DNA of 64,000 nucleotides. Source: Podarcis gaigeae. Lineage: Eukaryota. Shown one piece after another: positions 1 through 63,083 of the stretch. The notes beneath the pieces were generated by a model that was not told the DNA's origin, made no database searches, and was given only the letters and a program-made list of their open reading frames with translations. Numbering within the stretch: the stretch's first letter is position 1; every line of letters starts with the position of its first letter. A program made the position numbers and the translations under genes. Location: assembly GCA_964106915.2 (NCBI GenBank), contig OZ066926.1. One strand, written 5' to 3'.

Positions 1-279
1 AAACACCCAACTTCCCACTTCCCCTCACCACCCCACCTGTCTCATAATCTGCAAGACACCACTGAAACCTGGTTTGTGGTCCTTTATTCAAAACCTCTTG
101 ACCCTGAACCTTTCCAACCTGAGACCGACTGACTCTTAACTGTCCTCTAAACTTAGGATCCATGGAACAACAACATTATAACTGAGAGAGCTATATGTGA
201 GCAAAGCATATGAATCAGGGGAGCCTACATTCCATCTCAGTTTAATACTGGGCCTCTGGTGACTTCCATTTTGTAACAC

Positions 280-2400
280 TGTTATTAGCCTCTTTCAAAG
301 GTCACAGACGAGGTGCTACCTAGACAGGGGTGTGTCAGTTCTTACATATTTACCAACTTTGATCTCTCCATTCTGGAGTCTTCTGCCCTTCGCTTTATGG
401 TACATAGTTGTTTTTTTATTGGTCAACCCCCAACCCACCCTTGGTTTCTGTTCACCTACTTTTAACTTCTCTGCTGAAGACAACTGCCTGGAGTTAAGAG
501 AATGCATAAATTGTTCAGACAAAAACTGGCTACACTCCATTTAAATTTTTTAATAATGGCATTGACATAACTGGGATTATACAACATATTTATTAGTGTC
601 TTTTTTTCTGGAATAATTTCCATTACATTTAGCCTCCTGTGAGCAAAGGAGATTAAATCCAGTGTTAATCAGCCACTTAAAAAATTCATGCATACAAACT
701 TGGGACCTTTAACCTTTGCATTAGAGCAGGAGGTAACAGTCGTGAAATTGGTTCGTATTACTTATTGTCCTTCTGGGAAAGATGTCAGTCAGATAACAGC
801 TGCTATTTTAATTTTTTTTGTCTGGGTCAAAAACACAGTTTGACTGTCTCCTTAAGTGTTGTGTGACCTGGACCCTGATTCCATCCAAACTATTCTGTCC
901 CACTTACCGGTACGACTTATATCAAAATATGTTAGATGCTTCAATCCCACACTTCATAGGCATCTACACACCATTACAAAACAGTGGAACATGGTCAAGT
1001 GACATAGATCTGTGTAGGTACAGAAGTCTTACTTCTTCCTGCAGAGTTTGAGCACTTGCACTCTGCCCCTGGAATACCTTCACCCCCTTGTTTTCCATAA
1101 GGTTGGGCGGAGGGGGAATCAGGGGTCCTCCAGAATACATTGGCTTGCCAACTCCCATCAGCCCCAGCCAGCATAGCCAGTGATCAGGTTTGATGGAAGT
1201 TTTAGTCCATCCATAACTGGAGGGCCACCATTTCCCCATCCTGCCACAGGGATGCCGCTTCATACAAACTTCAGCAAAGTGTAATATGGGACATTTCAAC
1301 AGCCCTTTCAGTCAACTGTCTCATGGAACAGGGTTTGGATATTAATGGTGGTGGATGGAGAGGGAGGGTGAAATTGCATTCTGTAAATGCAATCTGGTGC
1401 AGGTAACTTTACTGGAGAGAAGGTATTATTTTCCTCCATTCTTCTTTTCCCATCTCTATATCCTCCCCTCCCTGGAGGAGGTAACTTTCTTGAATTAATT
1501 ATTGTAATTTTTTGTATTTGCATAATTTATTTTAAAAATGTTTTTTTTCTATTAAATTATTGTAATAAAGGTACCTGCTTAAAAATGGGGAAGTTTCCTG
1601 GTGTGTGTGTGTTTTAACTGGATAAGAATCTGTATCTCCAGGGCTTTTCCATGCCTAGACAGGCACATTTCCCAAAGAATATTAGTGACTTTAGTGAGCT
1701 GGATCATCCTTTTTTCTAACCCAGGGGGTTGTGTTTATTGGACAATTACAATTGTTAAAGAGGAAGGAGTTTTTGGCATAGTTGGCAGCACATGTGTGAA
1801 ATCTTACCTTGTTAACACTTGGGCAGCTTCCCTGTTCATCTGCTGCCTGTGGCTTGCTCCAGTAGTGGAAGAAAATAAGGTGAGCTTCCTTCTGGATTTT
1901 TAGAAACCTAAAATTTAAGGTGGGTGCAGGTTTTCTCGAATTCTCCCCTTCTGGATTGTAGCAATGGAGAGTGTTTCAGCAGTCTGGTGGATGCCTTGGA
2001 TTTTGTGAAGAGAGATGCTTATGGGGAAGGGGATCTGCATGTTGAGTGCCTCAGGCCAGAGGAAATGGAAGATCTACTGACATTATCCAGACTGCTGGTA
2101 TTTAATTGGAGAACATTATAGTATGCCTTGATTCATACTAGTTGATAGCAGCTGCTGCTGTAACTGGGGCCTTGGAGAAGAAGCAGAAGGGCTGGGCAGG
2201 CTTGAGGGGCTACAATGCAGTGGCTGGATGAGTGTTTTAATTTTAAGAAACCATATTTTGGGAAGTTGGTATTCCTGCTTCCATATCTTGGTAGTTTCCT
2301 ATCTCGTCTCGTACCCAGGGAAGAAGAGTCAGGCAGAGGTACATTGCTAGTATAGATTCCCATACTAGGATTAAACAAAGGCTTTGGCCCATTCAGAGCA
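280..2400 (-). mobile_element. Highly decayed Ty3/Gypsy retrotransposon pol relic (RNase H end to integrase); boundaries approximate
   Basis: Minus-strand fragments occur in pol order: LTLFSSTTGASHRQQMNREAAQVLTR*DF (~1795-1890, like the RNase H C-terminus), QEEVRLLY (~1015-1045, like the integrase HHCC region), LTDIFPRR (~769-792, cf. LVDYFSKW), GPKFVCMNF (~681-707, cf. NGPQF), LYNPSYVNAIIKKFK (~540-583, cf. YxPQxNGxxERFN) and GEIKVGKYVR (~340-370). Many stops and frameshifts; no LTR recognised. Confidence 0.5.
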
Positions 2401-3519
2401 GAACCCACTGTTTACAATGTATCTCAATCTAATAGGCAGCTGAGCCTTACACTAGTTTCTGCATTTTAACTGCATCCTCCTGTGCAAGAACATCTTATGT
2501 AGCTTCCTTCCACGTGTGGTTGATTCTTCCAAATATAAGCAGCTATGATACAAAAACTTAATCCTCAACAATGATCTACACCTTTCAAGTTGTCAAGGGT
2601 TAAAGTAGCAAAACCATATTGGCCTTGAGGGAATGAAGTTAACAAACCTTAGATTACTATGCTGGAAATTAGTCTTCTCTCAGCTGCAATTAGGCTGTGC
2701 TTAACTTTGTTAATAGCAATTGCCCAACAGTATAAAAAACTGAAACAAATTTACAAAATGACCCAATGCCTACCCTACTAGTGCTGCACAGTATCTGCAG
2801 TTTTTTTTGTATTACTATATTATTTAAACATGAAATACCTAGTGTTGCAGTTAAGTGATGATAAACTTTTAACCCTTATATGTACACTGTAGTTTGCAAT
2901 CAATCTGCAAAGAACCTCTACATATTTTTTCTATATAAAAGCAAGCCCCACTGAGCTCTATGTGAGTCACCACCAAGTATATTATTTATGATGGCATTTA
3001 AAATATTTTTACCCTACCCTTCAGCCGACCAAGCCACCCAAAGCAGTTTACAGTAATGAGTAATATGGTCCCCTCCTTTACAATCTAAAACACCTGGCAA
3101 AAGGAAACGAGATTGGAAGGTGGGGAGCATTAGGGCTGCGATTCTGACCTGGGAGTAAGCCCCACTGAATTTAATGGCGTTTAGTTCTGAGCAGACATGG
3201 CAGGGTTTGCAGCTTTAGTTGCGAAATCCTTACAGCTGCGGGGCCGAAGCAAGAGTCCTGTGGCTGCTAGTCACTTTACTTTATGGATGGGGCCAGGTAG
3301 GTCTCACCCTTTCCATAATGTTCTTCGAGGGCGGCACGGGGAGCAGCCTATATATGAGAAAATACATAAAATTATATGGCGGTGGGGTGGGAAAGCACAC
3401 GGTGCTTTTAAGCTCCACAAGAAAAACGCAACCAACCCAATTGTACGAAAGAAAATGGGCGGGTCAAGGAGTGGAGAAGCAAAGCAAAGAAGAGAGAGGA
3501 GGGGGGGGGAAAGCAACTC

Positions 3520-3900
3520 CCTCTAGTCACGTGATAGACGAAGCGATCACATGACAGAGGGCTGGTCACGCGGCACGGTTACCTCCCCGGAAGCTACGGC
3601 GCTTTGAGGATCAGGTGACCAGAGGAGGCCAAAGGGGGAAACCGGTCACGTGGCGGGGGCTGGCTGGGTGAATGTGCCGGGCGGGCTTGGCTGAATCGCC
3701 TGGGCCTGAGGAAGGTGAAGGGAGGAGAGCGGGGCTGGAGCGCAGGGGGGCCGCCTTGTAGTTGGGGGGCAGCCGGCCAGAGGCAAAGCGGGCAGCCGGG
3801 GCTTGGGGCGGAAGCGACGGGGCTCCTTGAGTCAGGGCCTTCCCGGGGAGGTTCTCTTTTTTTAATTTTAAAAAAGGAAAAAGGATCCCCCTTCAGGCGG
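3520..3900 (+). promoter_or_regulatory. CpG-rich promoter of the NUFIP2-like gene with clustered E-box/CLEAR-like motifs
   Basis: GTCACGTGAT 3526, ATCACATGAC 3546, GGTCACGCGG 3564, ATCAGGTGACC 3610, GGTCACGTGG 3644; ETS CCGGAAG ~3587; GC box GGGGCGG ~3805; local CpG enrichment. Confidence 0.7.
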
Positions 3901-4703
3901 AGGGTTCCTGGCTGTGATTTTGAGAGCGTCAGGCTGGGCCTAGAGTTATCTGAGCTCTGACGAAACAAGTGCCCCAATTGACGGAACTGGGAAAGGGAGG
4001 CCGAAAAGGTTGGAAAAGGCTGCGGAGGAAGTTTGCGACCCCCAGAAGCGGGGGCGGTAGATCTGGGCTGGTGGGGTTTTTTTAATAAAAAAAAGCAGCA
4101 AAGACTGCCGGGCAGCAAAGCTGTTAGTAAAGGTTGCGGGGTGGGTGGGAGTCGCCTCGAGTGTGGGGGTGTAAGCAAAGGAAAAAGCTTTTTTTGCTGC
4201 TCGTTAAGGAAGAAAGCTTCTGTTACGGTTGTAGGGAGGTGCCGCGTTTGGGGCTGGATCCTTGGGTTGATTGGTTTTTCAGCCGAGAAGCGCTAACTGG
4301 GGTGGGTGGGGTACCGTAGGGCAGACAGACAGCTAAAACAGGTGTTTGTATACAGCGTAGGGTGTTGAAGCCTAAGCTGCAGAGGTGGAAAGGAGTGTAG
4401 GTACAAATAGAAGTAGTTTCCTTTGGTCCTTCAAGCTGCTGTAGCATTTCAGAAGTTGGGGAGCTCTGCGGGGTATCTGGCAACTTTCTCTGCCACTGAG
4501 GTAACTTTTGCCTTAGGAACAGGCTACTAATTTGCAGTGCAGGGAAACAGAGGAAGAATAGAGTCCCTGGGCACGCTGTGGTGTTTTGCTTGAAAAGGAG
4601 GCTGAGAGCAAGACTGTAGTCAGGACTCTGGGGTATAGGAATACCTTCCACACCCTCGAAGCTCTATTGCTGTTGAGATCTGCATCACACACAGTCAGAG
4701 GCC

Positions 4704-7700
4704 ATGCAGAAGGAGGAGCTGGGAATGGATGAAAATCGCAACCCAGAGGAGGAGCTGCGTCTCCTCGGTGGAAAGAAGGAAAAATGCCACAACCTCAGCA
4801 ACCGCATCCGGACAGGTAACTTAAACTGCATCCAGTATTTTATCTTCTTCTAAGTCACTTCTGGTCCTCCAGAAATGTTGGACTCCAACTCCCATGAGCA
4901 CTAAGTCAGCATGACCATTGGTCAGGGATGATGGAAGTTGTAGTCCAGCAACATCTGGAGAGCCACAAGTACCCCAACCCTTCACCATCGCCAACTCAAG
5001 ACTGGCTACTAAAAACCCAGCTTCTTGCGCACCCAGAGCTTTGGTGTTGGTGCTTAGCATTTTGAAGCATTTCCTTTAGTTCCCAACGACCTCAGCAGAT
5101 CCTTGCCCTTATCAATCCATTCACACACACCCCAAACTCCTTGCATACATCTGTTATCCATTTAATCCTAAACTGAATTCTTGGGACAAGCAAGCTTTTT
5201 TCACCACTAGAGCGCATCCTTATTTCAATTTCCTTTACCTCAGCCCTATAGTGTCTATCTGATTTGTGGAGCTGTGAACCCCCATCCCCCAAGCTAAGTT
5301 TCCTGCTCCCCCCCCCCCAAAAAAAGTTTCAGACAGCCCATGTTGGGAATCCTACCCTAAACCATCAGCTGCTGCATCTCCACAGAATCATGCAGACGTG
5401 CCCCTTACCTGGTAAATCTCAACTTACTGGATCGCACTCCCTTCCCAGAGTTTGTTTCCTTTTCCTTACTGGGGCGGGTCCTATTTGGCTATTAATTCAG
5501 TGGCTCTGGTTTGATTAACTGCCTTTTGTAGCATGCATCTAAGTTCTAGCTGTCCTTAATGCATCTAAATGTTGAAAATAAAACCTTCTTTCTGTCACGC
5601 AGGGGGTGGAGCAGAGCTGGGCTACAGGCCAAGCCGGGTCTCCAGAGAAGGTGTGTTGTACTGAACTGGGATTGGCCGTTCCCCTTTTCCTTTCTGTCAT
5701 GCTTTTTCTGCATGTTTTTCTGTTCCAGAGGTGGCTGCACCTCAGTGCTGGGTGAGGTACATTCATCCTGAGAACCTAGAGCCCTGAATGCCCACCCTCT
5801 ATGCTCCCCATCTTCTCTTCCCTGTTGAAAAGATGTGGAGAAGTGATTATCTGCCACTGTGCTTCTTTACTAGATACCCATGTGGGAAAAGTAGCATGTT
5901 CTTCATATCCCTTTCCTCCTCCTGTTCCACTCCTGGGGTATACTTAGGAGAGGAATGAAGGCCTACAGATGGGAAAACGAGGACTCTTTAATTCTCTGGG
6001 CAGCAAGGCCAGAGCTCAGTGGCTTACAGGAAGGGATCCTAGAATTATTGGGAAAGGGTTTGAGGAACCTGAAATTGGTTAGGGCTTGAGAGAAGGGATC
6101 TCATAGGTTTGAGCTCTTCAGCATGAACACCTCTGATTCCATTCCCCCCCCCCCTTTGCTAATCACAATGTAGAGAAGCTTGGAAACTTGAAGACAGCAT
6201 GTTTTGAATGCTAAATAACCAGAAAAGCGGGGAGTGGGCTAAACCAACCTCCGAAGTGGTATTTTCATATGATCTCCTGATGTTGCTGAACTACAACTTC
6301 CGTCAGCCCCTGTCAGTATGGCCATAAAGATGCAAAATATGGTTCAGCAGTTTCTGGAGGGCAAAAGGTTCCTTGTACTTGTCTTAGAGTTTATAATTCA
6401 TTAATAAATATCAGAAGAGGAATCCCCCCCCCCCCGCCATTTTATTGACTAAAGATCACTGTTTTGGAATTGACTGAGTTAGCAGCACGGAGAGGGGTAT
6501 TGAAATCACTTAAGTGATGTGAAGATTTTAGCCACCTGCACACCCCAGATAAACGATCTCGAGGGTATTTTAACCCCATGGGCTATCTGCCTTATCTATG
6601 ACCTGTTGACCCCAAACTGAGAGAGGTGAATGTGTCTGCATTCCAGATAAATGAAAACCAGAAATACGTTCAAATATTTAGATATCATATTCAAGTACCT
6701 TTTAATCCCCCAATTTTCTTACCCAAACTCCAAACACTAACTGAGCAGTCTGGTATTTTGGGAGGGTTGGAATGAACTGCGCTGAGGCACCATTTTTGTT
6801 GATGGTGCACTTAACATAAGCTCCCTACCTGCCGAAATAAAAAATGGGGTTGCTGCTCTGAGGTGCTTACATTCTAGGTGTGAGAGGGTGACAAAGGGAC
6901 GTGAGACAGGCATGGTCTTCACCCTTCCTCTTCTTCCTCTTCAGGTGCCTGGGAGTCCAACGGGTATACTGCTCCCTCTGAGATAGCTGACGAACCCAGT
7001 GTTCCCCTGAGCCCTTCCAACAGCCTCAACATCCGCAATCTCCAGTTGTCTGAGCGGGACCCTCCTGTTGCCCACCATCCCCACCGCTACCCTCATCGCT
7101 TTTACCATGCCCGCCCCTTCCATGCTACAGCATACCGCAAGACCTACCGAGGCAGCCCCTCAGACCGCAAGGAATGGGGACCTAGCACAAACGGCCATCA
7201 CTGTGCTCCTGAGAGCATCTCCAACGGGCGGTGGCAGCACCGGCGCCGCGGCTATTCCGACCCACCCTCCCCGTCGTCGTCTCCCGAATCCGAACGAGGC
7301 AGCACCATCAAAGCCAGTGAGAAGCCTGCCGCCACATCTAGTGCCGCCAACACAGCCAACGAGGATTCTGGGAAGGAAACATGGTCGCTCTTCCGGCCAC
7401 TTCCCGCTTTCCCTGTCGATAGCAGCAGTGCCCGGATCATCCCCAAGATCTCTTATGCCAGCAAGCTGAAAGAGAACCTGGATCAACCGGGGAAAGCCTG
7501 CCATGTTCCTGCCTCAGCCGTCCGCACCACCAATAGCCTCCCCAACTGTGTCTTGGCGCCACCCCCAAGTAGCCCCCCGCCATCTGACAGCAGTCGGCGA
7601 CAGCACCTGGGAGCCATCTTTCAGAATGAGTGGGGCCTCTCCTTTATCAACGAGCCGGGGGCTGGGCATGGAGGGGGTGGCGGGACGGCACCAGACGTGG

Positions 7701-9590
7701 ATGAACGAGATGCAGATGCTGGAGCATCCTGGGAGAAAATGGAAGTTAGCGACTGGCAGGCTGCAAAAAATTACCATCTGGACGGTAAGGTGCTGGAAGG
7801 AGCCCAGTCATTGGGCATGAGGGAAAGGGAGGAGAACCAATGCATGTGTGTTGAGGCTTGGGAGCTGTTCCATAGGTAGCTGAACATAGTCAAGAGAGAA
7901 GGGATGGAAGACACAAGGAAATGCTTCACTTGGAAAGCTAGGGATGTTTGTGAAGATGGTGAGTGAAGGGGCAGTCACACAGCACAAAGAACTTTTGCAG
8001 TTCATGAAAGTGGAGAGGTGTTGGGTAGTATTGGCTGTCAGAAGAAATAAAGGACAATCTCTTCCCTGCTCTGAGGTTGATTTCTACTATAGTTTACATT
8101 TGCTCTACAGACTAGGGCATGAATTACTTTGGGTAGAAGATGATCAAATAGCCTATCCCTACCTTTTCTGATTACTTTGTCAGCTATTGTTTTTAGAAGG
8201 CTAAAGAGGTAGTTATAGATGGATATCATTTAGCTCCCTCATAATTTTAAACATTGCTCCAGAGAGCACAGATTCCCACATCCAGTTTTATGTAGCTTGG
8301 GAAAAGGTTTGGATGGGCATGTGACCTTCAGTGCACTGAGACCCCAACTTTTCTCAGTGTGGCTGAACTTTCGGGGCATTGTCTTGAGAAGTGAGCAGCT
8401 TCAGCTGTGCTAGGGGGTTTTAGGGCACTGGGGCTTATTTACAAACAGTGCTTGGCTTCTTCTAATTTCCCTTTTCCCTTTCCCCCTCTTCTAATACAGA
8501 GTGGAGACATATATGGGAGCTACACAGTCAAGGTAAGCAAATGGAGGTGCCTGGGCCTAAATCAGTGGCTTCATAAATAAGACCTTTAGGGCTCAACAGT
8601 GGGCTGGATAGCTTCATATTAAAGGGGGTATGAAGATTTGCAGTAATGTACAACAATGTGAAGTGGAAGGGAGCAGAGTCCTAGGACAGGGATGTGACTC
8701 TAAGAATTGTGGGTGTGTAATTCATACTTTCCAATCCTTGCCATATATTCAGTTGCGTCTCCCTCTCTACTGTACCACACATGCAAAAAACAAACAAAAA
8801 CCCACAAATTTAATCTGACCACTCGTATTTTGAAAAAATCCAGCCTTTTGTGAGGATTGCTTTCAGAAGCTGAGGGGCACTGATTCTACATTTTAAGACT
8901 GTGTCTTTTCGTGGTTTGCTTTTTAATGTTGTGCCCTGGATGTGTTTGAGTGCATGTGCTCCATAGCTTTGAAGCCCTAACTGGTAGGAGGTGCTGGCTT
9001 TTGATCATCTAACACAAGTTTAAAATTACATTTTGAAAATGCTTCTGACCCCACATCATTTGCCTGGAGAACTTGAGTCGGTGACACTGAAGACAAGTGC
9101 CACTGCCAGCCTGGGCCCATGAGCCAGGCAGCCAGGCAGGTTTTCTATTCATGTAGTATCAGGCAGGAGCAGGTAGATGCTATCTAAAAAACTGGGGTGA
9201 TTGGTTCTGTGCAGTATGGGGAAGTGAATAAACTGGGCCTTATGAAGTTGTGTGATGGGAGATAGGAAAGAGAAGTACAGCTGCGGAAATCCACAACTAT
9301 CTGATGTTGGATGTGGAGCTGCCTTAAACAATTCAACCAAATCACAAAAGAGCTGCATATGTGGGAACAGATTAATGAAGGGTCTGTTCTGTGGCCAGCC
9401 ATTGAGGATAGCGGGGAGAATAGTGGGGCTTCGGGCAGGGGTGTGTGTGTGTGTGTGTGTGTGTATACACACATTATCTATGGCACATCTCCCTTCAAGG
9501 CATTGTTCCTGTTGCCATCACTTTTTCTTTTTCCATCTAGATCCTAGCAGAGTGACGGTCTACACAGACACCTTCGATGGGAAGGGTTAA
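4704..9590 (+). CDS. NUFIP2-like protein (FMR1-interacting protein 2 paralogue), 344 aa, 4 coding exons
   Basis: Exons 4704-4815 (gccATG..ACAG|gtaac), 6945-7784, 8500-8532, 9541-9590 (TAA). All introns are GT-AG and phase 1; 1035 nt, in frame. Blocks match NUFIP2: WSLFRPLPAFPVDSSSARIIPKISYASKLKENL, QHLGAIFQNEWGLSFINEP and C-terminal DWQAAKNYHLDEWRHIWELHSQDPSRVTVY. AATAAA at ~9882 and ~10374. Confidence 0.88.
9440..9463. repeat. (GT)n microsatellite
   Basis: Direct GT dinucleotide run in the last intron of the NUFIP2-like gene. Confidence 0.95.
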
Positions 9591-11269
9591 CTTCAATAAT
9601 TCCCAGGGGAAGCACCGCTAAGACATGAGGGGGGGCACATGGGCAGAGGCAAGATGCCCACCCCACCCCCCTTGAAGACTGGAGAAGCCCAAGCATCTTG
9701 AAAGGGGAAGCTCTGCCACCTGCCTACCTCCCTCCCTTTGCTGTTATAGCTCAAATTGTCTCAGTGGGGCTAACGCCTCACCTCTCTTTTTCTCTCTTGC
9801 TCTCTCTCTCTTTCTCTCTGATTTAATGCTCTGGTTTTTAATTTCTTCACATGGTTTTTAATTTCTCTGGATTCCCCTGAAAATAAAGGCAAAAAAAGAA
9901 TTTATTTAAATTCACTTCTCTTGCCTTGTCAGTGTCTCATTATTCATTGCTACACAGGTGTGTTATCAGCATGGGGTAGGTAGTGATGTGGCTCAAGGCA
10001 CTGAAAATGGTTTGGGAGGGAAATTATTTTAAGGGATAGAGATGGAAAAACGTGAAAAACATGATTTTTGAAAGCACAAAGGAGAAGCTTTGGGAAGTTT
10101 ACCACAAGGAACTATTAATATAGGGCAAAGAAATAGTTTTATTTGTTTATCCACTGAAGAATTTATAAGCTGCATTCTCATAAGTATTGACAAGGTGGTA
10201 TGCAACATACAAGATAAAACCACCAAAGGCATCATTAAAAACATCAGTAAATACTAGTTACCACAAAGGAAAGAAATGTGAAGGCCTGTCTATAAACAGT
10301 TTTCAGAAGATGTCTTAAAGAAGGCAGGGGTGATTTCTACTGAAATTGTGACTTGATCAACTTGATTTAATAGGAATAAAATATTTGCTCAGTGTGTCTT
10401 CTGCCAGCATAGTGACGAGATTATGCCAAGCATAACTTTACTTCTAGGTATCTTTTAGATGTACAGTGCTAGTTTACCTAAATGCTAATTAATGGTTCGA
10501 TACTCTTTATTTCTATTCTCATGTGCTGAGCTTCTAAGCTGGTTGCCACTGTAAAAAAGCTCCTCACTTTTAAAAATAAGATTGCCATCTTAAAAGCCAG
10601 TAAACTGATGCGGCCAATTTACTGAAGAGTAAAGCCTACAGAGCACAATGGGGCTTCTCAGTAAAGATGCTTAGTTGCAGTGGTAATGAGGAAGTGTGTG
10701 AAATAAATCCCCACCACAATTTATCATGAAAGCCAAAGGAAGGAGCCATCTGTGTCCTGTTGGGTAAGAGTGCAGTGTTGATAGCCTTCATAGGGGCAAA
10801 ACATTTTCTTAGCCCAGCTGTTTTGTAGAAAAATACAGAAAGCTATGAGCCCAATCTCCCCCTGCCCCCTGAAATGGTATTAAAATCAATGGGATGGGTC
10901 CATGTAAACATTGCACGGTCTGAATTGCTTGCTTATTTGAACCTGAGCCTCCTTTTATACAAACCTGAGCCTGGGTTGCTTTGCAGTTACTCTTTTCTGG
11001 GCTTAAAAACACAAGTAGACAAGTAACAAAAAATGAGCCATATAACTCACTGTTCCTGACCTGCACTGGGGGAGGGGGAGGAGAAAATGCGCTCTTTGTT
11101 GGTTTGCCTCTTTTAAAAGGTGACTATTTCATAAGAGTTGACCTAAATGTAGCTAAAACCGTTTTTGACGATACAATATATTAATGATCTATAAATAAGT
11201 ACTCTTTGCCCTCGACCAAAATGGCTCTCAAAGCTTCCAGTAGTTGTGGTAGCTCTATGCTCTTCGGAA

Positions 11270-11630
11270 GACTCTCCTCTATGGTTCCGAACAGCCGTTA
11301 TACGGGAAGGCGCACGGCCTCCTCTCTTCCGAGGCCTAAGTCGATGACGTGATTTACAGTGTAGGGAGCAGCACTGTTTCTATGGCGGGAGCGTAGCGCG
11401 AGGCGCGTGCGCGCCTGTGCGTCACTCCAAAGCGCCCATTCGCCCGCGGATTGAGAGCGGCGCGGAGGAGTCTCGCCTGCGCGCGAGAGTAATACCTGAT
11501 AGGATTCCTTTGCAGGAGTTAGGAAATGGGTGTGCGCAGCTGCCTCTTAAAGAGGCAGAATCCTCGAGTAAAAGGGGAAGTCGCCTGAGCGCCAGCCTGG
11601 AGGGCAGTAGAGAACAGGACGGAGGTAAGA
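11270..11630 (+). promoter_or_regulatory. CpG-island promoter and non-coding first exon (probable TMEM219 exon 1; possibly shared with the Harbinger-derived ORF)
   Basis: CpG-dense, with CRE-like TGACGTGA ~11345, NRF1-like GCGCGTGCGC ~11403 and a strong donor GAG|GTAAGA at 11624/11625. It is the only non-transposon CpG island between the NUFIP2-like gene and the TMEM219 coding exons. Confidence 0.7.
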
Positions 11631-12399
11631 TAAGGTTGCACCTTTCTTAACTGTGTGCCATTCTTGCATTTCTCCCCCCCCCCCCCCGGGTCTGTTCTCC
11701 ATCTGGTTATTCTCATCTAAATCCTTTTGTTCAGCTATTTTGGAGCAAGGATTTAGGTTTCGAAGAATGTAGCCCCTTGGGGGATAAAATAGGGGGTTTT
11801 TTTGCCCTCGTTTGCTGCCTCACACCAAGTCAGCCCATTGGTCCATCTTGTATTGTTTACTCTGACTGGTAGCTGCTCTCCAGGGTCTTTCTCAAGCTGA
11901 ACGCTTCTAGCTGCATGGCCAGAGGTCGAACTTGCATTTTCTGAATGCCAAATATTGACTTTGCCTCTGAACGATGGCACCTCTCAGTCAGAGAAAGTCA
12001 CAATTGGTATCCTATACATGCCGCAATCCTTTGCATATATATGCCCAGAAGTGAATTCTACAGTGGAGTTTATTTCTTAGTAAGTATGCATAGAATTGCA
12101 ATTGAGAGAGATTAATACACTCCCGTATTTCTGGGGCTTAGACTATTTACAAGTGAATGCATTTTTTTCTCAGTGCACAGCTGAAAAAGAAGTTATATGT
12201 CTACCTTCCATGTGAAATCTGCGAAATTCCCCATGATCATTAATTACGGTATTCCTAAAGCACTTCTTAGCAAGCAATCTTGGTTTTCAGTGCTCTTCTT
12301 GTCACTATGGAAGTCAGTCAGCCACATCATTGTTTCTCACCATGCTTGATGGACTTTTGCAATTAAGAAAGTTTCTACCTGGATCTCCTAACCCTAATG

Positions 12400-12606
12400 T
12401 GGTGCTGCGGGTGATGTGCCAGACTAGGACCGGGGAGACCAAGATCCAAACCCCCCATTCAACTATGAAGCTCACAGGGTGGTCAGTCACTGTCTCTCAG
12501 CCTTACCTCACCCACAGGGTTGTTGTGAAGATAAAATGCAGGGACAGCGACGTATGCCTCTTTGAGCTCCTTGGAGGAAAGGTGGGCTATTATGTATTAA
12601 ACGAAT
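12400..12606 (+). mobile_element. CORE/MIR-like SINE fragment (similar copies ~13115-13330 on + and ~41960-42190 on -)
   Basis: Contains CTCTCAGCCT(T)ACCTCAC..CAGGGTTGTTGTGAAGATAAAATG core-like sequence; recognised from memory. Confidence 0.6.
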
Positions 12607-13434
12607 AACACTGCTGTACCACACTAACCATCTTCACATGTACTTACTCATATTTCTCTCTAACCCAAAAGCTTATTTTGAGCTGGGAGCTTAACCTGCC
12701 GGGAACCTGTTTTGAGTGCTACCACTGAACCATGAAATAACAGTAAGCCATGCTGTTGGTTCTCATCTGGCAAGAGGGCTGTGGTTTGCACATGGCATGC
12801 TGCCTTTTGGCCTTCCCTCCCCAGACTCAATAGCTGAGCAGGCAGTTTTCGTAAAGATAGGGCAGGATTCAGTTATCCTATTTCACTAGCAGACAAAGAC
12901 TTCTACTAGCCTAATGGGGCTTCACCCACCTTACGCCTCTCCCAAATCTGCTCTGAAGGATCATGAGAACCCACAGAACAGATCACAGGGAGGAGAGGGG
13001 AAATTGTTCCATCAAGCAAGCAGCAGACAGAACAATCTCCTTAGCGCTAGCCAGAATTCCACCCATGGTGGTTGTTTTTTAAATCACAATTGTCCCTCAG
13101 TAATTTAATAAGAGAAAGCTGGTGTAGTGTAGTGCCTGAGAGACTGAGCTATAAGTCAGAAGTCAGGACTGGTTTGGATCTTACCTCTGCCCTGAGCTCA
13201 CAAGGTGCCTTGGGGAAGCAATTCTCCTTCAACCTCACCCCTGTTGCCGTATTGGGGGATAATGCAGATTTACAGACTTACAACTGGATGATGCATGTGA
13301 ACTACTGTGAGCACTTGAAAGCAGTCTAGGAATATGAGGTATTGTTATTAACAGGACAAAAGACGCCTCTACAGTTGTAATGTGAGCAGGCTGTGTGCTC
13401 CCATTGCACATTAGTGTCTGTGCATTCACACGTG

Positions 13435-13570
13435 CAGGCACCCCCAAACTCGGCCCGCCAGCTGCTTTGGGACTACAACTCCCATCATCCCTAGCTAACA
13501 AGAGCAGTGGTCAGGGATGGTAGGGATTGTAGTCCCAAAGCATCTGGAGGGCCAAGTTTGGGGATGCCTG
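13435..13570. mobile_element. Short palindromic hAT-type MITE (family with degenerate copies ~4860-4980, 6270-6380, 42940-43030, 45367-45502, 55500-55590, 61910-62010)
   Basis: TIR CAGGCACCCCCAAACT / AGTTTGGGGATGCCTG; internal inverted GACTACAACTCCCATC / GGGATTGTAGTC; 8-bp TSD CACACGTG / CACATGTA. The copy at 45367-45502 has TSD CCCTAGAG / CCATAGAG. Confidence 0.8.
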
Positions 13571-14051
13571 CACATGTAGGTGCACTTGAGATGAAACACA
13601 CCTATAGATTCAACTGTGTGTGTTTGTGTGTGAGAGATGAATGCTGGAGAATGAGAGCTCTAGTACGTGATTGCTAATGTGATTTTGGTAACAAATTCCC
13701 AAAGGCAGGGCCACAACTAGAAATAGGGACGGATAAGGAGTTTCCCAGTAGATCCTTTGTTAGAGTTTAAACCAAACCACTTTCTGTCTCCAGACTATCT
13801 GTCTTTCCATGCCACTATCTTGGCCACCCTTCCCCTCTTCCCTATACCCAGTCACTGCTCTCTCATCTCTTCCTTGTCTTTGGCAACTGAGTATGGGATG
13901 ATGATCAGATTAAATGAAGGGCTCTTCTGCCTTTCAAATAAGTATTTAGAAGATAGTGGCTTGTACAGAACTACGTAGGAACCCAGGCTGCAATTGAAGC
14001 TGGTACCTCTATCAGTAATAGGGTCCCAAAGCTCTCTCTGTGTGTCTATGT

Positions 14052-15391
14052 CAGTGTTTCCCAACCTTTTTTGGGCAAAGGCACACTTGTTTCATGAAAA
14101 AAATCTCGAGGCACACCACCATTAGAAAATGTTTAAAAAATTAACTCTGTGCCTATATTGACTATATATAAAGTAACTCTCTTTAATAGGCATCAAATAA
14201 ACACAAAGAAAGTACCGGTATTTTATAATTACTTTATTATGAAATAGTAAGTACCGTATTTTTAGGACGCTCCGTCCCATAGGACGCACCTACTTTTTTT
14301 GGGGGGGGGAAATAAAGGAAAAATTTTTTTCCTTTATTTCCCCCCCCAAAACCAGGTCGGGGAACAGTAGGATGGCGGTGCTGCGCCTCCCTGCTGTCCC
14401 CCGAGCTTGTGGGGCTGGCCCATGTCTGCCTGGCGCGAGGGGCGCTCTGCTTCAGGGCGCCCCGCGCATCGGGCGGCAGGCTACAGTCCGCAGCATGGGG
14501 AACCCTCTGTTTCAGGGCGCCCCACGCACCCCCCCCCGGGTGCGCAAGGCTTGCCAACACGAGCGCGGAGCACGGGGCGTCCTCCGAAGGGCGCCCCGTG
14601 CTCTGCGCCGCCCGCAAGCCTTGCGCTCCTGGGGGGAGATCCCCTGGGTGCGCAAGGCTGGCCAACACCAGCGCGGAGCACGGGGCGTCCTCCGAAGGAA
14701 CGCCGCCATCCCGCTGTCCCCCGACTTGGTTAGAAGGCTGGCGGGGGGAGAAGCCTGCTCCTCCCCGTCGCCAGCCCCGCAAACTCGGGAGACAGCGGGA
14801 GAGGCGTAGCGCGCCCACCCGCTGTCTCCCGACATGGTTTGGAGGCTGGCGGAGGGCTTCCTCCTCCCCCAGCCCCGCAAGCTCCCAGAGCTCTGGGTCC
14901 CGTTCTGGGGGAGGGGAAAGCTCGGGCTTCCCCCGCCCCAGCCCCGCGTCTCCAGCCGGGAGACGGTCGCGCTTTAGCCCCGTGCGTGCTCTCCCAGCTG
15001 GAGAGGTGACGCGCGCCTATGGAGGCTCCTGCCATAGGCGCGCGTCACCTCTCCAGCGGGGAGAGGGTCGCGGGGGGCTGCTTTAGCCCCGTGCGTGCTC
15101 TCCCAGCTGGAGAGGTGACGCGCGCCTATGGAGGCTCCTGCCATAGGCGCGCGTCACCTCTCCAGCGGGGAGAGGGTCGCGGGGGGCTGCTTTAGCCCCG
15201 TGCGTGCTCTCCCAGCTCGAGAGGTGACGCGCGCCTATGGCAGGAGCCTCCATAGGCGCGCGTCACCTCTCCAGCTGGGAGAGCACGCACGGGGCTAAAG
15301 CAGCCCGACTCACCCGCCTCCCTCCCACGGCACACCCGGCAACTTCTCGCGGCACACTAGTGTGCCGCGGAACACCGGTTGGGAAACACTG
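14052..15391. mobile_element. Young non-autonomous hAT (Charlie-like) element, 1340 bp, with CpG-rich tandem and hairpin cargo
   Basis: Perfect 15-bp TIR CAGTGTTTCCCAACC / GGTTGGGAAACACTG; perfect 8-bp TSD GTCTATGT (14044-14051, 15392-15399); repeated subterminal GGCACAC motifs; 22-bp perfect palindrome at 15348-15369. Confidence 0.93.
14971..15306. repeat. 109-bp tandem hairpin repeat (units start 14971, 15080, 15189); the last unit is a long palindrome
   Basis: Each unit contains the stem GAGAGGTGACGCGCGCCTATGG / CCATAGGCGCGCGTCACCTCTC around a 9-nt loop. 15184-15240 and 15250-15306 are 57-bp inverted arms with one mismatch. Confidence 0.95.
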
Positions 15392-16605
15392 GTCTATGTG
15401 GTTTGCATCCAGCCCTAACCATGTTATTATTTAAAAGTAAGTACCACTGAGTTCAGTGCGATTTGCTTCCAACCAAGGATGTGCAGGGTTGCAGCTCTAA
15501 TGTACTGAGGACACACGGAAAACTGTGTTGCATGAGAAAAATCAATATTCCCTGTGGAAGGGGGAGTGGGGGAGTTATTGTAGCAGAGAACATGTAGATC
15601 AGTTCCCAATGTTCTTCATTGTTTTTGTAGTAAGTCAAAGTTGGGCATTAAATGACTTCTGGGCGTTTTGCTAAGGATGGTGGAAGAGCAACTGAACTGA
15701 ATTATTTGGGTCAGTAGGCCAACAGAACTGCTCTGATTCCGTGAGCTTTAACCACTGAGAACACATTAGCATTCTGCTCATTTCACAGAAAAGAGGATTT
15801 AAAACTGTTCATTTCGCTGTAGTCATGGTTCAAATGGAATATTTGGGGGGAAATAAAGTACAGCTGTCTCACTAACTTGCGCAGAGGTGGAGCTGTGGAA
15901 AAGTGGTAAGATTTTAAATCTCACAGGATTTACCTCAGAACCTGATTTGCAAGACTCAGCCTAATTGCCTCTGAGCATGTATAGAGCACTTTCCCATCAC
16001 TGCTGAGTAACTCCTGTTGGGCTGAGCACACCTGAAACAAGCAGGGATGCTGAGCCTCTGAAGCCAATTAAGTTACAAATCAGATATCAGGTGGTTGACC
16101 AGTTTTGAGTTAGAGTCCTAGCTTCAGAGAGTAGGCAGTTACTGGAGGTGGGTGTGGGTTGATGTAAGACAAACATTATGGGAGTAATATAGCAATGTGA
16201 TTGAGGGGTGGTCAGCTGGAAGACTGTTTATGGGCGCTGGAGGTAAGCTGGTATGGGGAAGACATATGCAACTCTGAAACCTTTAAGAATTTTGAAATGT
16301 AGAACGTGCAGAGATTGGACCTTTCCCAAGTGTGGTGGAATAAATTTCTTATGCTCAATCTATTTTGCTGTTTAGAAGAGCCCTTCACGGTTGAAATACA
16401 AATATGATTCTGTTACAATATATTGCCCTTCAGCTCAACAGCACCTTTCCGGCTGAAGCAGAAGGACTGGTGATGTCTCGTCCCTGCCCAGCGACATCAT
16501 CCCTGCCTTGGCTAAGGGTGTAGCAAGGGGAAGGTTTTTCTCGTAGCACCTTCACGCCACTTCCTTCCGAGCCTTCTGCAAGCTTCTTCAAGAGCGGCCG
16601 AATAA

Positions 16606-17961
16606 ATGGAGCAGGAGTGCCTGGCTCTGGTTGCTGCCTGCGTCCAAACCTCCCAGTTGCTGGTGCAGCAATGGATGCTCAACAGGCGCACGGTGATTTT
16701 CGCCATAGCGAGGATTCTGCAGAGGAGGCGCTTCCGCAGGTCAGCCGCGGTGCTGAGGCGCATCCTCTCAGCCAGCGTCCGCCGCAAGAGAGCCCTGCTG
16801 CGGCTTCACCGGAACGCCATCGTCTCCGTGGTCACCATGGTGTACTCGTCTTCCCCCGCGCTGCACTACGAGCACGAGCTGATGGCCTTGTCTGAGCGCT
16901 CCCACTGGATGCTTCCCAGGTGCAGCGAATGGTGGGAGCGGATGATCAACTCTGAGCAGGACGACAAGTGCTGGATTTCCTTGTTCAGGATGTCGCGGTC
17001 CACACTGATGTACATCGCCGAGGAGCTGCGCCCTGCCCTGCAGCGCCGGGACACGGGCATGCGCTCTCACATCCCTGTGGAGAAAAGAGTCGCCATGACT
17101 ATCTGGAAGCTGGCGCACCACGACAGCTACAAGACCGTCTCAGAGCTCTTCGGGGTGGGGATTTCGTCAGCCTGCTCGATATTTGAAGAGGTGTGCGAGG
17201 AAATAAACAGCAGGCTGCTGGCCCAAATCATTAAGCTGGGAGACCCGCAGGAGATCATTGAGGGCTTCAAGGAGATGGGTTTCCCCAACTGCCTTGGCGC
17301 AATCGATGCAATCCACATCTCCATCCTCTGCCCCCCGTTCTCTGCTGACTCCTACATTAATTGCAAGGGTTTCTATTCTATGGTGCTGCAGGCCCTGGTG
17401 GACAGCAAATCCCGGTTCACCGATATCTACGTCGGCTTTCCGGAGAGGTCCCACGACTCCCGCATCTTGCACAACTCTCCGTTCTTCAACAGCATGGACG
17501 AAGGCACTTTTGGGCCACAGACGCCAACGGTGCTGGAAGGCGTTTCGATGACCCCTGTCATAATTGGGGATCCTGCCTATCCGCTTCGGCCCTGGCTCAT
17601 GAAGCCGTACCCAGCGCCAAAAACCGGGGCCCAGGAAAAATTCAACGAGCGGCTCGCTAAGTGCCGAGCGTGTGTGGAGAGAGCTTTTGGGGTCCTGAGA
17701 GCTCGCTGGAGGTGCCTGCAGATGAGGCTGGATGTGAGGGAGAAGCTCATTCCGGTGGTCATAGCCACCTGCTGTATCCTGCACAATATCTGCGAGATCA
17801 AAGGGGATGAGTTGCTGGAGCCGTTGGAAAGCCCCGCAGTGGCTGAAAGCCAGAATGCTTCAGCCAGGCCAAGGGTGCCCTTGTCAGAGGCTGGACTGAC
17901 CAAGAGAGCTTGCCAGATCAGGGCTGCTTATTGCTCCTATTTTGAAAAGAGCCCTGTGTAA
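16606..17961 (+). CDS. PIF/Harbinger-family DDE transposase-derived protein (HARBI1/ALP1-like, DDE_Tnp_4 type), 451 aa, intronless
   Basis: Uninterrupted ORF. N-terminal Harbinger motifs WWER..DDKCWISLFRMSR, VEKRVAMTIWKLA and the HTH-like YKTVSELFGVGISSAC; catalytic motifs GAID, IGDPAYP, VERAFG; C-terminal CCILHN. Acceptor TTGCCCTTCAG at 16433; AATAAA ~18093. The sequence does not look like the HARBI1 orthologue, so no symbol is given. Confidence 0.92.
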   Translation: MEQECLALVAACVQTSQLLVQQWMLNRRTVIFAIARILQRRRFRRSAAVLRRILSASVRRKRALLRLHRNAIVSVVTMVYSSSPALHYEHELMALSERSHWMLPRCSEWWERMINSEQDDKCWISLFRMSRSTLMYIAEELRPALQRRDTGMRSHIPVEKRVAMTIWKLAHHDSYKTVSELFGVGISSACSIFEEVCEEINSRLLAQIIKLGDPQEIIEGFKEMGFPNCLGAIDAIHISILCPPFSADSYINCKGFYSMVLQALVDSKSRFTDIYVGFPERSHDSRILHNSPFFNSMDEGTFGPQTPTVLEGVSMTPVIIGDPAYPLRPWLMKPYPAPKTGAQEKFNERLAKCRACVERAFGVLRARWRCLQMRLDVREKLIPVVIATCCILHNICEIKGDELLEPLESPAVAESQNASARPRVPLSEAGLTKRACQIRAAYCSYFEKSPV

Positions 17962-20940: not shown

Positions 20941-23011
20941 CTTACACTAATAGCAAATTCATTCTCCCAGGTGTGGATCCTTGTGCAGCTAAAAGTGCAT
21001 GATGAGTGCACGTGGAAGAGATATTCAGGAAGAACTGAACATGCTCAGTGGCTATAGAATATTGACTCTCAGTTGAATGGAGGGAAGAATGGATAAGCGG
21101 GAGGAGGGAAAATGGAATATCCAGGAAAAGGGCATGGCTGGCTGGCAGGAATTCCAAATAGGAGCCTCCATACTGCAACTTTTTGTTGCAGGTTCCACTT
21201 GTCATGATTAATAGCTAATGGTAAAACACATTAATTCTCCATGAAAGTGTGTTTAATCCATCTATGCTAGTGCCCATCACCACATCTTGCAGTGTGGCAG
21301 GGAACCATTTGTGGGCTTAAAAAGAGCTCATGATGATCGCGTGGGCACAGCCAAGGGCTAATCTGTATGTTAAGAATGTATGAATGCTGGATCAGGCCAA
21401 TGGCCCATCCAGTTCTCTTTGCAGCCAGCCAAACGCCTGTCAAAAGTCTGCAAGCAGGATCTGAGCACAACAGCCCTGTCCTCACATACAATTCAGCAAA
21501 GGTACAGGAGATCACATACTGCACAATGATCTTGCTAGCAGTTCACTGCAGTATCTGCTAGCAAGTTGTTTGTGTGATGTAAACACACCAACATTTGTGA
21601 TATATAGCACAAAACAAGTCTACTATGAAACTACGCACTCACATGCAATTCTTAAGAAATATGGGGAGAAACTCTCACAAGACCAGAAGACTCAAAGGAG
21701 GGAAGCCTTATATAACAAAGGAATGGAACAAAACTAAAACATCAAACAAATGTGGCATTCAGTTTACCATTGTTTATGCTGCTTATTCATTTTGTGGGGG
21801 GTTCTCTCTGTTGGTGAATTTTGAGGGCACACACAAAGATCAGCATCCCCATATTCTTTTTTAAAAAACTTTATTTAACAAAGGAAAAACAATGTGATCA
21901 ACAACAGTGCATCATGTGGCACATTATACTTTAAGATTTGACAGAGATTGTTAAAAGTAACCTCCTTATAAAGTTTTTCCCCTTCCTCATCCCCTACAAA
22001 TAACACCACACTGCGAGAAGACTTGGCAATGATGAGATTGCCATGTTGGGTGGAGCAAATGAAGCAACTATGGGTTGCAATTATCCAACTTTCACCTATA
22101 ATTCCAGCTCTTTCTTTCCAACTTAATCGTGTTGAAATTTGCCACCTTCATCAGAAATATAGAGAAGTAGGAAAACCTGTCAAGTAGGAAAACCTTACCT
22201 GTATATCCTTGAGTGCGACCTTCTTTCATACAAGCAGAGTCATCCAGCCAGTTGCGATGATCAAGAATCTAGTGGTTGCTAACTTCTAAGTCCCCCCCCC
22301 CCCCGCAATGCATAGATTTAGAGCTGATTTAAACAATGAGGTGTATGTAGTGGAGTTTTCCCTGAGGGCCTTACTATGTCAAGATACACATGGGCGGTGG
22401 TTACTTGTCTAAAAACACCCCAGTCAAAATATATTCATTTTATTAATTTTTGAATTGCCTTTCACATGTCTCAATCTGAATTACAATATAAGCAACTAAC
22501 ATACTTTTAAAAGCAATACAAGATGGAGACCTTTTCATCCAGATGGAAATGTTTGTTGAAACAAAATGTCTTCAGGTTTTTTTGGAAAGCACATAAAAAA
22601 TGAATATGAAGTAGCAGTAGATCACCTTTCCATTTACGTGGCGATCTTGAGGCAGGGGCAATCTCAAGGAAACCAATTCCCACTTTATTTTCAGCAAGTT
22701 TAGTCCCTTTAGACAACCAGACTGCATGCACGCTAAATATTTAAATAATCACTGAGCAATTTATGAGATTCAATTAATATCTTTTGGTGTTATTTCCATT
22801 CACATTTCTGGGACACGATTTGACTTTTTAAAATTTATTTATTTAATAAAGCAAAGCTTATGATTGTACCACACAAAATGCAAAGGGGAATAGGTAGCAC
22901 ACCGCCTGCCTTTTCCTTACCCTTGATTCTGGCTGTTCCAGCAGACGTTTCAGCTTCTTCTAGTGCTGGGATGACACTGCAACCTTCTTACCCTCATTCC
23001 TAGGGTTGACC

Positions 23012-24712
23012 ATGGTCACCTGCTCCCTGCTGGGCTCCCTGCGTGTCTGCCTGGAGCGACACCCACCTCTGGTCACCTTCTTCTTTTGCCTCCTTTCGTT
23101 GGCTGTTGCCTTTGTTGGTTTTGCTGCCTACATCCAGTCACATGATGTTCAGAATCCCGATGTCAAAGAGGTGAGCTAGAGATGATCACCTTAAGTAGAA
23201 AATCAGACCAAAATGCTGGGGGTGGAATTGGGTTGTGGTTGTAAAGCACGCATGAGAGACTTTAGGAGGCATGTTAGGAGGTAGAGGCAGACTTGTGTGA
23301 TTTATCTTTTGGCAATTGTTTTTATTTATTACCATTTTCTAACAGACTTGAGAGATTTACCCAAATTTGAACAGCTGCATTGATTTGCTCTCAAAAATAG
23401 TGTTGCCTGTGTTGGCTGCTGTTATCATACCATAATGACCCAAGCTAAACATTCATGAATTACAGAGGGTTGGGTGTTGTTGGTTTTTACAAATACGCTA
23501 TAAGAAACTGTCATTGAAAAAATAGTCCTGAATGGATACTATCACAAGAAGTGGGGAGCAAAAGAATAGGATATTCAACAGTACAAAATTTTAAATTAGT
23601 AGGTGCAGCTATATCTGAAATATTCAACGATCCGGCTGTTCTGAGATGTTTTATGGTACTTTTAAAATACAGTTCCCATCTTTCAATTTTCTAGCTGTTA
23701 AGAGCAAAAGGGAATTTTTAGAGGCAAGATTGGGTGAAATTGGAAAGGTACTTTAAAAGGCAGAAGCAAATGAAAAAAATGCAATCAAGAGAATAGAATC
23801 AACTAAGAGTCAATTCTCATTCCTTTCCCTCCCTCATCTCTAAGGACTGGAATTCTCTGCTAAAGTCTCTGGCACACTTAATGTTCTGTATCCCAAATAA
23901 GACGCAGGAAAGTGCCTTGACACCAGCTCCTTCCACAACCACTGCTGAGACCCCTACAACAGTCTCTGTCATGGTTGGCTTGACCTTTGACCTCCACAAT
24001 GGCACAGATCCTCCCAATGGTACACGTCTAGGTCTGACAGTCACTGGGGAAAAACTGGGTCTCAAAGGTGAGTGATTTCTCACTCCTGACCAATTGCAAC
24101 ATCCTCCCAAAGATTTCAGAAACTCTGGTTCCGTGTCCGTCTCCCCTTGACCTTTCCTTCCATCAACTTCCAACCACAGGTCCAGATGCCCAGGAATCAA
24201 TCCACTTCCTGACTATCATCACGAACTCAGTCTCCCATGAGAACTGCCTTAGCATCACTGCACCTTCATCCCTTCTCCCCAAGACCAGGTGAGCCAAGAG
24301 ATTTAGTTTCAAGGAGTTCTTAACCCATTAATGCAATACTCCCATCTTGTCCCCAGACAACCACCTAAATGTGTGATAGAGGAATGGGACATGCACCAAG
24401 AAGAGACAGGAATTTGTTACCAGCCACATTACCAGGCTAATCCTGCCCTGTCCAGCATGCTGGATCAGGTAAGATGAATGTGGGCAGTGACAGTATCTGG
24501 ACCTGGGGATTCTGGGCTTCTTCAGGATGCAAGCTGGATTATAAGGGGAGGAGCATTCACTGTTGCACTCCTTTCACTCTCAGGCGGATCGTGCCCTCTG
24601 CAGCCAGCGGCTCCTGATGACCAGTGCTTTCCTTCTCTGCCTCTGTGCCATGCTATGTTGTGCAGCTGGCCTGTGCTATCCTAACCCCAGAGACAAGTGG
24701 GGGCAAATCTAA
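23012..24712 (+). CDS. TMEM219: Transmembrane protein 219 (IGFBP-3 receptor), 243 aa, 5 coding exons
   Basis: Exons 23012-23170 (acceptor 23003, accATGg; MVTCSLLGSLRVCLERHPPLVTFFFCLLSLAVAFVGF..NPDVKE), 23845-24067 (DWNSLLKSLAHLMFC), 24180-24288, 24357-24468, 24584-24712 (DRALCSQRLLMTSAFLLCLCAMLCC..TAA). GT-AG introns, phases consistent, two TM segments, AATAAA 24861. Lies upstream of TAOK2 on the same strand as in mammals. Confidence 0.92.

Positions 24713-39024: not shown

Positions 39025-63083
<24,059 letters not shown>

Follow-up and report, generated by a model that had tools for sequence, protein, structure and literature searches.

The stress-granule protein NUFIP2, disordered over most of its length, is linked to FMRP, Roquin, G3BP, ataxin-2-like and TDP-43, and its motifs have barely been mapped. 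According to the accessible parts of the papers, to which all statements cited here refer, NUFIP2 binds the NTF2L domain directly (PMC9533235), F511 is the NUFIP2 residue reported to bind the NTF2L domain of G3BP1, and NTF2L-binding peptides disrupt granules (both bioRxiv 10.1101/2025.11.30.691455). A NUFIP2 fragment, residues 255-411, can bind either Roquin-1 or FMRP, each excluding the other (PMC5775257); no motif mapping was found in the accessible text of bioRxiv 2025.04.07.646890. Here we describe a second gene of this family in a 64,000-nucleotide stretch of DNA from Podarcis gaigeae (GenBank assembly GCA_964106915.2, contig OZ066926.1; the whole stretch is called the window below). Sequence comparison shows that this gene encodes an ancient paralogue of NUFIP2, probably a disordered mRNA-granule adaptor that would act through short linear motifs.

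The gene runs on the plus strand from an ATG at 4704 to a TAA ending at 9590, exactly the ends given in an earlier note on this DNA, and its four coding exons (Table 1) join into an open frame of 344 amino acids. Each of the three introns follows the GT-AG rule and interrupts the frame in phase 1; their donors score 9.2, 8.9 and 11.1, and only 1.7% of the 3354 plus-strand GT sites score 8 or more. The complete four-exon gene with a 33-nucleotide exon 3 that the note had described was thus confirmed in coordinates, frame and splice sites, but a fifth, cassette exon had been overlooked, whose inclusion gives a 360-residue isoform matching the X1 proteins of Rhineura and Sceloporus. The large exon 2, the 33-nucleotide exon 3 and the phase-1 introns are read directly in the DNA of the window. 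For canonical NUFIP2 the comparison is indirect, from predicted proteins: where a model runs on past an exon or leaves one out, the break falls at an equivalent point, and exon 3 of opossum encodes 11 amino acids.

The product is identical at 342 of 344 residues to isoform X2 of LOC114581571 of Podarcis muralis, which RefSeq labels 'uncharacterized', and exon 2 matched the Pfam NUFIP2 family PF15293 (E 1.3e-26, 94.1 bits, gathering cut-off 27). A pseudogene or a chance open frame can practically be dismissed: the frame is open over four or five exons with strong splice sites, protein identity is 87-94% among most squamates, and full-length spliced relatives (protein ids P0013, P0038, P0050 and P0053) lie on read-assembly contigs of 1.2-4.3 kb. 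These spliced relatives on short contigs also suggest that the paralogue is transcribed in other species. The lizard gene is an intact NUFIP2-like gene and a real second copy of NUFIP2.

A search with exon 2 returned 49 proteins of 153-489 amino acids among 1138 candidates, 43 of them with taxon names (squamates 9, turtles 6, frogs 21, caecilians 5, paddlefish 1 and medaka 1; the medaka match is a splice variant of canonical NUFIP2, not the paralogue). Axolotl and coelacanth members were added by a profile search (best 120 of 393 matches), and a search with the coelacanth protein (best 120 of 444 matches) gave canonical proteins, including those of three mammals and six chondrichthyans. A search for representative proteins returned 45 unnamed matches. 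From about 208 protein ids we selected 44 rows, 22 named canonical proteins and 22 of the paralogue type (two without a name), and built a tree over 309 of 1098 columns. The paralogue clade, comprising lizard, turtle, frog, caecilian, axolotl, coelacanth and paddlefish, split from canonical NUFIP2 with 100/100 support, and both clades roughly follow vertebrate phylogeny. A 20-row set aligned in a different mode gave the same split, but did not recover sharks as the sister of the bony canonical rows.

The approximately unbiased (AU) test rejected a grouping of the lizard gene with canonical amniote proteins (p 4e-99), and the two types are both named in five species ranging from turtle to paddlefish (Pelusios, Pelobates, Pelodytes, Geotrypetes and Polyodon). 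In the two frogs, Pelobates and Pelodytes, the contigs that carry the two types differ in length. It is very improbable that this is the lizard's only NUFIP2, translocated or degenerate, or a recent squamate duplicate. One could read it so because no squamate canonical NUFIP2 is among the matches listed (the best 120 of 393 and of 444), which also speaks against our own view, and because some members of the clade, in Bombina and Microcaecilia, are labelled plain 'NUFIP2'; most canonical matches, however, lie outside those listed, and a translocated orthologue and a recent squamate duplicate are both refuted by the AU test together with the tree split. Lizards presumably do have one canonical NUFIP2. 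As a canonical orthologue, the lizard gene fails on its grouping with the mammal, turtle and frog canonical proteins, on its nuclear localization signal (NLS) and on its length. The distinct, old paralogue that the note had envisaged is therefore upheld.

The AU test also rejected a duplication confined to tetrapods (p 4e-61) and a paddlefish copy that is a fish-specific duplicate (p 1.6e-4). Paddlefish and P0145 form long branches in the 44-row tree, which may attract. Because the paralogue clade spans ray-finned and lobe-finned vertebrates, the protein sequences place the duplication before the split of these two lineages. We think it likely that the early vertebrate genome duplications gave rise to the paralogue as they did to TAOK1/TAOK2, and that mammals and, as it appears, archosaurs have lost it. 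The earlier note had proposed the same origin; its antiquity is established, and the assignment to the genome duplications is likely only, since neither a jawless or invertebrate outgroup nor a named shark member was found with which to root the tree, and the date rests on synteny.

The paralogue sits in the TMEM219-TAOK2 block, upstream of both genes. TAO1 was not among the PDB matches of the first exon of the TAO kinase gene, and this gene has a long hydrophobic exon (51900-53591) that we take to be TAOK2-specific. Human NUFIP2 and TAOK1 both map to 17q11.2 (PMC4886423). The two blocks are thus paralogous on one anchor pair, TAOK2 in the window and TAOK1 at 17q11.2. Human NUFIP2 and TAOK1 are presumably direct neighbours in head-to-head order, and we assume SEZ6/SEZ6L2, ALDOC/ALDOA and CORO6/CORO1A to be further pairs shared by 17q11.2 and 16p11.2. 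Our literature search found no publication on a TAOK1/TAOK2/NUFIP2 paralogon. Human 16p11.2 has the order KCTD13, TMEM219, TAOK2, with only the long non-coding RNA (lncRNA) KCTD13-DT between the first two, and the accessible gene list contains no NUFIP2-like gene (PMC11211608), in agreement with the note's statement that none is known beside human TMEM219/TAOK2. A place between KCTD13 and TMEM219, where the note would look for a relic in mammals, is seen for the lizard gene on the TMEM219 side; KCTD13 was not found within the window (no Pfam match above cut-off in 31 stop-free stretches of at least 50 amino acids in 1-3600).

The same gene could have another origin, a segmental duplication with transposition in the bony-vertebrate stem after the sharks had branched off, landing beside TAOK2 by chance. 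Several observations speak for this origin and so weigh against a genome duplication. No named shark paralogue is among the matches listed in the exon 2, profile and coelacanth-protein searches, all six named chondrichthyan matches being canonical, and the unrooted tree admits a root on the shark branch, which would put the duplication in the bony-fish stem. Shark canonical proteins score 139-152 bits against the coelacanth paralogue and bony-vertebrate canonical proteins at most 121. The lizard gene is co-directional with TAOK2, with TMEM219 in between, so that the head-to-head order that we assume for human would require a local inversion. A chance landing beside the paralogue of the gene's own neighbour is unlikely, however, and slow evolution of sharks, seen in their short branches, explains their scores. 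We therefore regard the transposition as quite improbable, and prefer the genome duplications as the source of the paralogue.

By the proteins recovered, the paralogue is kept in lizards, turtles, amphibians, coelacanth and paddlefish. Mammals, birds, crocodilians and cartilaginous fishes are not represented among the 43 named exon 2 matches. The loss in mammals that the note had postulated agrees with this, but among annotated proteins it is not confined to mammals, birds and crocodilians also being without a named member. If both absences are real, there would be at least two losses, because turtles and squamates have the gene. The absence in archosaurs may be a gap in assembly or annotation; TAOK2, TMEM219 and KCTD13 do not occur in the text and six supplements of Lovell et al. 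2014 (PMC4290089), which neither supports nor excludes a gap in bird assemblies. No named teleost paralogue is among the matches listed. One divergent paralogue-type protein, P0145 (349 amino acids), stands on its long branch beside paddlefish and may be a teleost member. Rhinatrema (P0026/P0032) and Microcaecilia (P0029/P0037) have two paralogue-type copies each, in both cases on contigs of equal length, a caecilian tandem duplication. Six canonical-type proteins (P0122-P0124, P0151, P0155 and P0156) were left out of the paralogue set, as was P0144, a paddlefish-like paralogue fused by annotation with an unrelated low-complexity frame. P0155 and P0156 are strongly diverged canonical-type proteins with a degenerate block 1 (see below), further and later duplicates in some lineage.

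Comparison of the two clades revealed 43 positions that are at least 90% conserved in both, and all of these except Met1, N238 and Y314 fall within residues 184-216, 225-229 and 259-275 of the lizard protein. The shared blocks follow one another in the order WxLF..FPVD..ISYASK (block 1), VPxSA, IFxNxWGLxFI (block 2) and the C-terminal helix block. Three of them had been quoted in the note and all three were found in the product; the fourth, VPxS[AS], is present in 20 of 22 paralogue and 21 of 22 canonical rows. Another 29 positions are conserved in the paralogue clade only. Motifs of its own are DENxNP (4728-4745, plus strand; 20/22 paralogue and 0/22 canonical rows), GxWExNG and PLSxSNxLN[IL]R, with PLSxS in 21/22 and 1/22 rows and N[IL]R[NH] in 19/22 and 0/22. 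DENxNP presumably resembles KEN-box-like degrons. Conversely, a basic NLS block (21/22 canonical rows) and a DGSxSE block (22/22) are absent from all 22 paralogue rows; the segment deleted as the NLS in a study of NUFIP2 (PMC9533235) is this basic block.

Paralogue lengths decrease from axolotl (540 amino acids), the basal member P0053 (537) and coelacanth (at least 508) through caecilian (460) and frog (about 405) to lizard (344) and turtle (333), and the spacer between blocks 1 and 2 from 127 to 26-57 amino acids along this series (canonical 106-147). From this series, the short length is derived, through stepwise shrinkage. The half-length, minimal NUFIP2 of the note is therefore accurate as to the shared blocks, but the N-terminal motifs of its own mark the protein as a diverged paralogue, more than just a minimal NUFIP2. 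The lack of an N-terminal His/Gln tract, which the note had also mentioned, is uninformative: six of six shark canonical proteins have only 0-3 His in their first 100 amino acids, and we rejected the His tract as a diagnostic feature of canonical NUFIP2. An AlphaFold model from the 85-row alignment showed a disordered chain (mean predicted local distance difference test, pLDDT, 53) with one confident, moderately amphipathic helix at residues 305-328 (pLDDT >90). A PDB search with the 344-residue protein gave 0 matches at E up to 10; an ESM Atlas search with residues 1-130 gave no clusters other than NUFIP2, with a value of 0.78 that is under the useful range, and no new family for the N-terminal motifs. 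A homodimer prediction for residues 296-344 scored 0.01 (alignment not used).

When residues are counted from the C-terminus on a total of 695, the place of human F511 is taken by the Phe of GLSFINEP (residue 511 in camel and ground squirrel, 513 in opossum and turtle), and WGLxFI around it is present in all 85 aligned proteins. Judging from this correspondence, block 2 is likely to bind the NTF2L domain of G3BP. We lean slightly toward a contact for FMRP/FXR or Roquin in block 1; this block and the VPxSA block (about human 401-405) both lie within the 255-411 fragment. The helix at 305-328 is a further predicted binding element. As its retained motifs indicate, the paralogue would serve in mRNA granules as a disordered adaptor between G3BP, proteins of the FMRP family or Roquin and, perhaps, 40S ribosomes, and it would be cytoplasmic only, because it has no NLS. 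Its own N-terminal motifs would give it regulation or partners not available to canonical NUFIP2, and a partial redundancy with canonical NUFIP2 would explain why it was dispensable and was lost.

Two points weigh against this assignment. The human numbering rests on the 695-residue length and on proteins of non-human mammals, and five species-pair distances show the paralogue evolving 2.0-3.0 times as fast as canonical NUFIP2, so that its partners may have changed. The chief functional rival to an adaptor is a paralogue of the same age and origin with a changed role, a competitor or tissue-specific regulator that binds G3BP with low valency and dampens granule assembly instead of scaffolding it. 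The two- to threefold faster evolution, the loss of the NLS and other canonical-only blocks, the 29 paralogue-only positions, the stepwise shortening and the disruption of granules by isolated NTF2L-binding peptides would all fit such a role. Yet four shared blocks and the C-terminal helix were kept in order for more than 400 million years, suggesting the same partners, and an Arg/His/Tyr-rich low-complexity region is still present at residues 80-140. We consider the changed role rather unlikely and favour the adaptor.

Block 1 ends in SYASK[VL]K in all 85 aligned proteins. The RACK1-interacting helix (RIH) of LARP4 is SYAEVC (bioRxiv 2024.11.01.621267), mutation of Y611/V615/R616 in ZAK abolishes ribosome binding (PMC12823453), and the consensus of such helices is Ser-aromatic-Ala-x-hydrophobic (bioRxiv 2026.08.26.747346). 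The Ser-aromatic-Ala-x core is found in 85 of 85 proteins, and SYASK[VL]K may dock on ribosomal RACK1 as an RIH, a reading to which its sequence gives slightly less than an even chance. Three observations count against it: the fifth, hydrophobic position of the consensus is Lys in all rows, the hydrophobic residue following one place later as does V615 of ZAK; 8-9% of ribosome-associated proteins carry the pattern (bioRxiv 2026.08.26.747346); and the FPx[LF] motif is present in 0 of the 85 proteins. NUFIP2 is not named in the accessible text of these three sources (the preprint supplements, including Table S1 of the last, were not covered).

A trace of the gene may persist in human. Hezroni et al. 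2017 (PMC5577775) list a human two-exon transcript, XLOC_025863 (chr16:29938156-29940254, plus strand), whose partner in position and orientation is ENSXETT00000063296 of X. tropicalis, lost in eutherians and anchored on taok2. In the accessible table the pair has a sequence similarity of 0 and no lizard or coelacanth match, the frog gene is unnamed, and such lncRNA-gene pairs are mostly due to chance (53 of 241 above expectation). The orientation of the window fits the published pair, the paralogue, TMEM219 and TAOK2 all lying on the plus strand. From the offset between hg19 and hg38 we take XLOC_025863 to be KCTD13-DT. The lncRNA could then be a fossil of this gene, a lead only, and one that we rate somewhat under even.

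The features of the window are collected in Table 1. The CpG-rich promoter region contains two CACGTG E-boxes, at 3528 and 3647, and strong minus-strand donors at 3308, 1808 and 908 suggest a divergent gene on the minus strand that shares it. The Pfam scan took 150 of the 196 stop-free stretches (1-3600, 9600-16600 and 18000-30813), in which TMEM219 was the sole family above cut-off; a weak Defb50 match at 19021-19356 (plus strand, E 2.6e-4, below cut-off) is probably due to chance. Between the paralogue and TMEM219 lies an intact transposase frame of the Harbinger/PIF type (16606-17958, plus strand; DDE_Tnp_4 E 3e-29, HTH_Tnp_4), around which no terminal inverted repeats were found. It may be either a recent insertion or a HARBI1-like gene that has been domesticated, and perhaps shares the promoter at 11.3-11.6 kb. 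A second CpG island (11000-11650, plus strand, observed/expected ratio 1.08) with a donor-like site near 11640 at its end is likely to be the first, non-coding exon of either TMEM219 or the transposase-like gene. GC-rich nested palindromic repeats at 14240-15322 (arms of up to 116 nucleotides, 88-98% complementary) are probably stacked non-autonomous elements.

Table 1. Coordinates of the NUFIP2-like gene, its promoter region and its syntenic anchors in the window.
Feature	Position	Strand	Remarks
CpG-rich promoter region, probably bidirectional	3000..4500	.	GC 0.48-0.62, CpG observed/expected 0.53-0.66
Coding exon 1, aa 1-37	4704..4815 (112 nt)	+	carries paralogue-specific DENxNP
Cassette exon, in-frame alternative, 48 nt	5603..5650	+	donor score 9.2; same 16-aa insert in P0002 and P0006
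Exon 2, aa 38-317	6945..7784 (840 nt)	+	paralogue-specific N-terminal motifs, block 1, VPxSA block, block 2, start of C-terminal helix
Block 1, aa 184-216, WSLFRP..FPVD..KISYASKLKENL	7382..7480	+	about human 334-366; contains SYASK[VL]K
Block 2, aa 262-275, IFQNEWGLSFINEP	7616..7657	+	F271 is the counterpart of human F511
Exon 3, 33 nt, 11 aa	8500..8532	+	second half of predicted helix 305-328
Exon 4, coding part (50 nt) and stop	9541..9590	+	AATAAA at 9882
TMEM219 coding exons, synteny anchor	22964..24072 (further exons to ~24700)	+	Pfam PF14940, E 7e-13 and 2e-9
TAOK2 coding region, synteny anchor	39025..63000	+	best PDB match of first exon is TAO2

The gene is already in the databases, under no useful name, and we did not find it in print: a literature search under the gene identifiers, 'NUFIP2-like' and NUFIP2 as an ohnolog returned no description of the paralogue, most subscription papers lying outside the search, and the 'paralog' of NUFIP2 in the accessible text of bioRxiv 2025.03.06.641895 means NUFIP1. 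Its entries include LOC114581571 (Podarcis), LOC100145486 / XB5854344 (Xenopus), H3ACB7 (Latimeria) and 'NUFIP2-like' (frogs, axolotl), and six paralogue-type proteins (P0019, P0029, P0037, P0047, P0048 and P0049) have misleading names such as plain NUFIP2, formin-like 7, GPI-anchored protein 58 and SFPQ-like. Several frog and caecilian 'NUFIP2' entries are thereby corrected to this paralogue. The evolutionary event itself is unsurprising, because paralogues that survive outside mammals are common, with hundreds per species (PMC5577775). A sister gene that has been separate for more than 400 million years, at half the length and with about 43 strongly conserved positions, nevertheless provides a natural map of the motifs of NUFIP2. 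The presence of the reported G3BP1-binding residue in one block suggests genuine binding sites in the others as well, and makes them direct targets for mutagenesis. The paralogue may buffer a loss of NUFIP2 function in Xenopus, axolotl or lizard, and a lncRNA of human 16p11.2 may have its origin in this gene.

These leads can be joined into one reading, in which the paralogue would be a 400-million-year natural deletion series, NUFIP2 proteins would be ribosome-to-granule adaptors (a RACK1 helix on the 40S subunit, the F511 equivalent on G3BP, FMRP and Roquin competing at one block) and KCTD13-DT would be the fossil. As a whole it is unlikely; the ribosome-to-granule adaptor alone is a tentative proposal that falls just short of an even chance. 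If the joint reading is true, frog and fish models of the 16p11.2 autism copy-number variant carry an extra RNA-granule gene.

Among known systems, the RIH proteins ZAK-alpha, LARP4/4B, RNF10 and USP10 share with the paralogue the Ser-aromatic-Ala-x core in a disordered setting, and ZAK in addition the hydrophobic residue at Tyr+4 and the basic one at Tyr+5; the paralogue differs from RIH proteins in the Lys at the fifth position and in having no FPx[LF] partner motif. Among lost coding genes that left a lncRNA in mammals, as described in the accessible part of PMC5577775, there is a lncRNA pairing anchored on taok2 that may involve this gene, but no sequence similarity is reported for this pair. 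Its closest counterpart is canonical NUFIP2 (82-FIP, PF15293). Canonical NUFIP2 has about 600-700 amino acids and an NLS, whereas the paralogue has 333-540 amino acids, no NLS and an extra cassette exon. Both proteins are mostly disordered, both genes have a TAO kinase neighbour and, on the indirect evidence of protein models, junctions at equivalent places, and both have kept block 1, VPxS[AS], block 2 and the C-terminal helix block.

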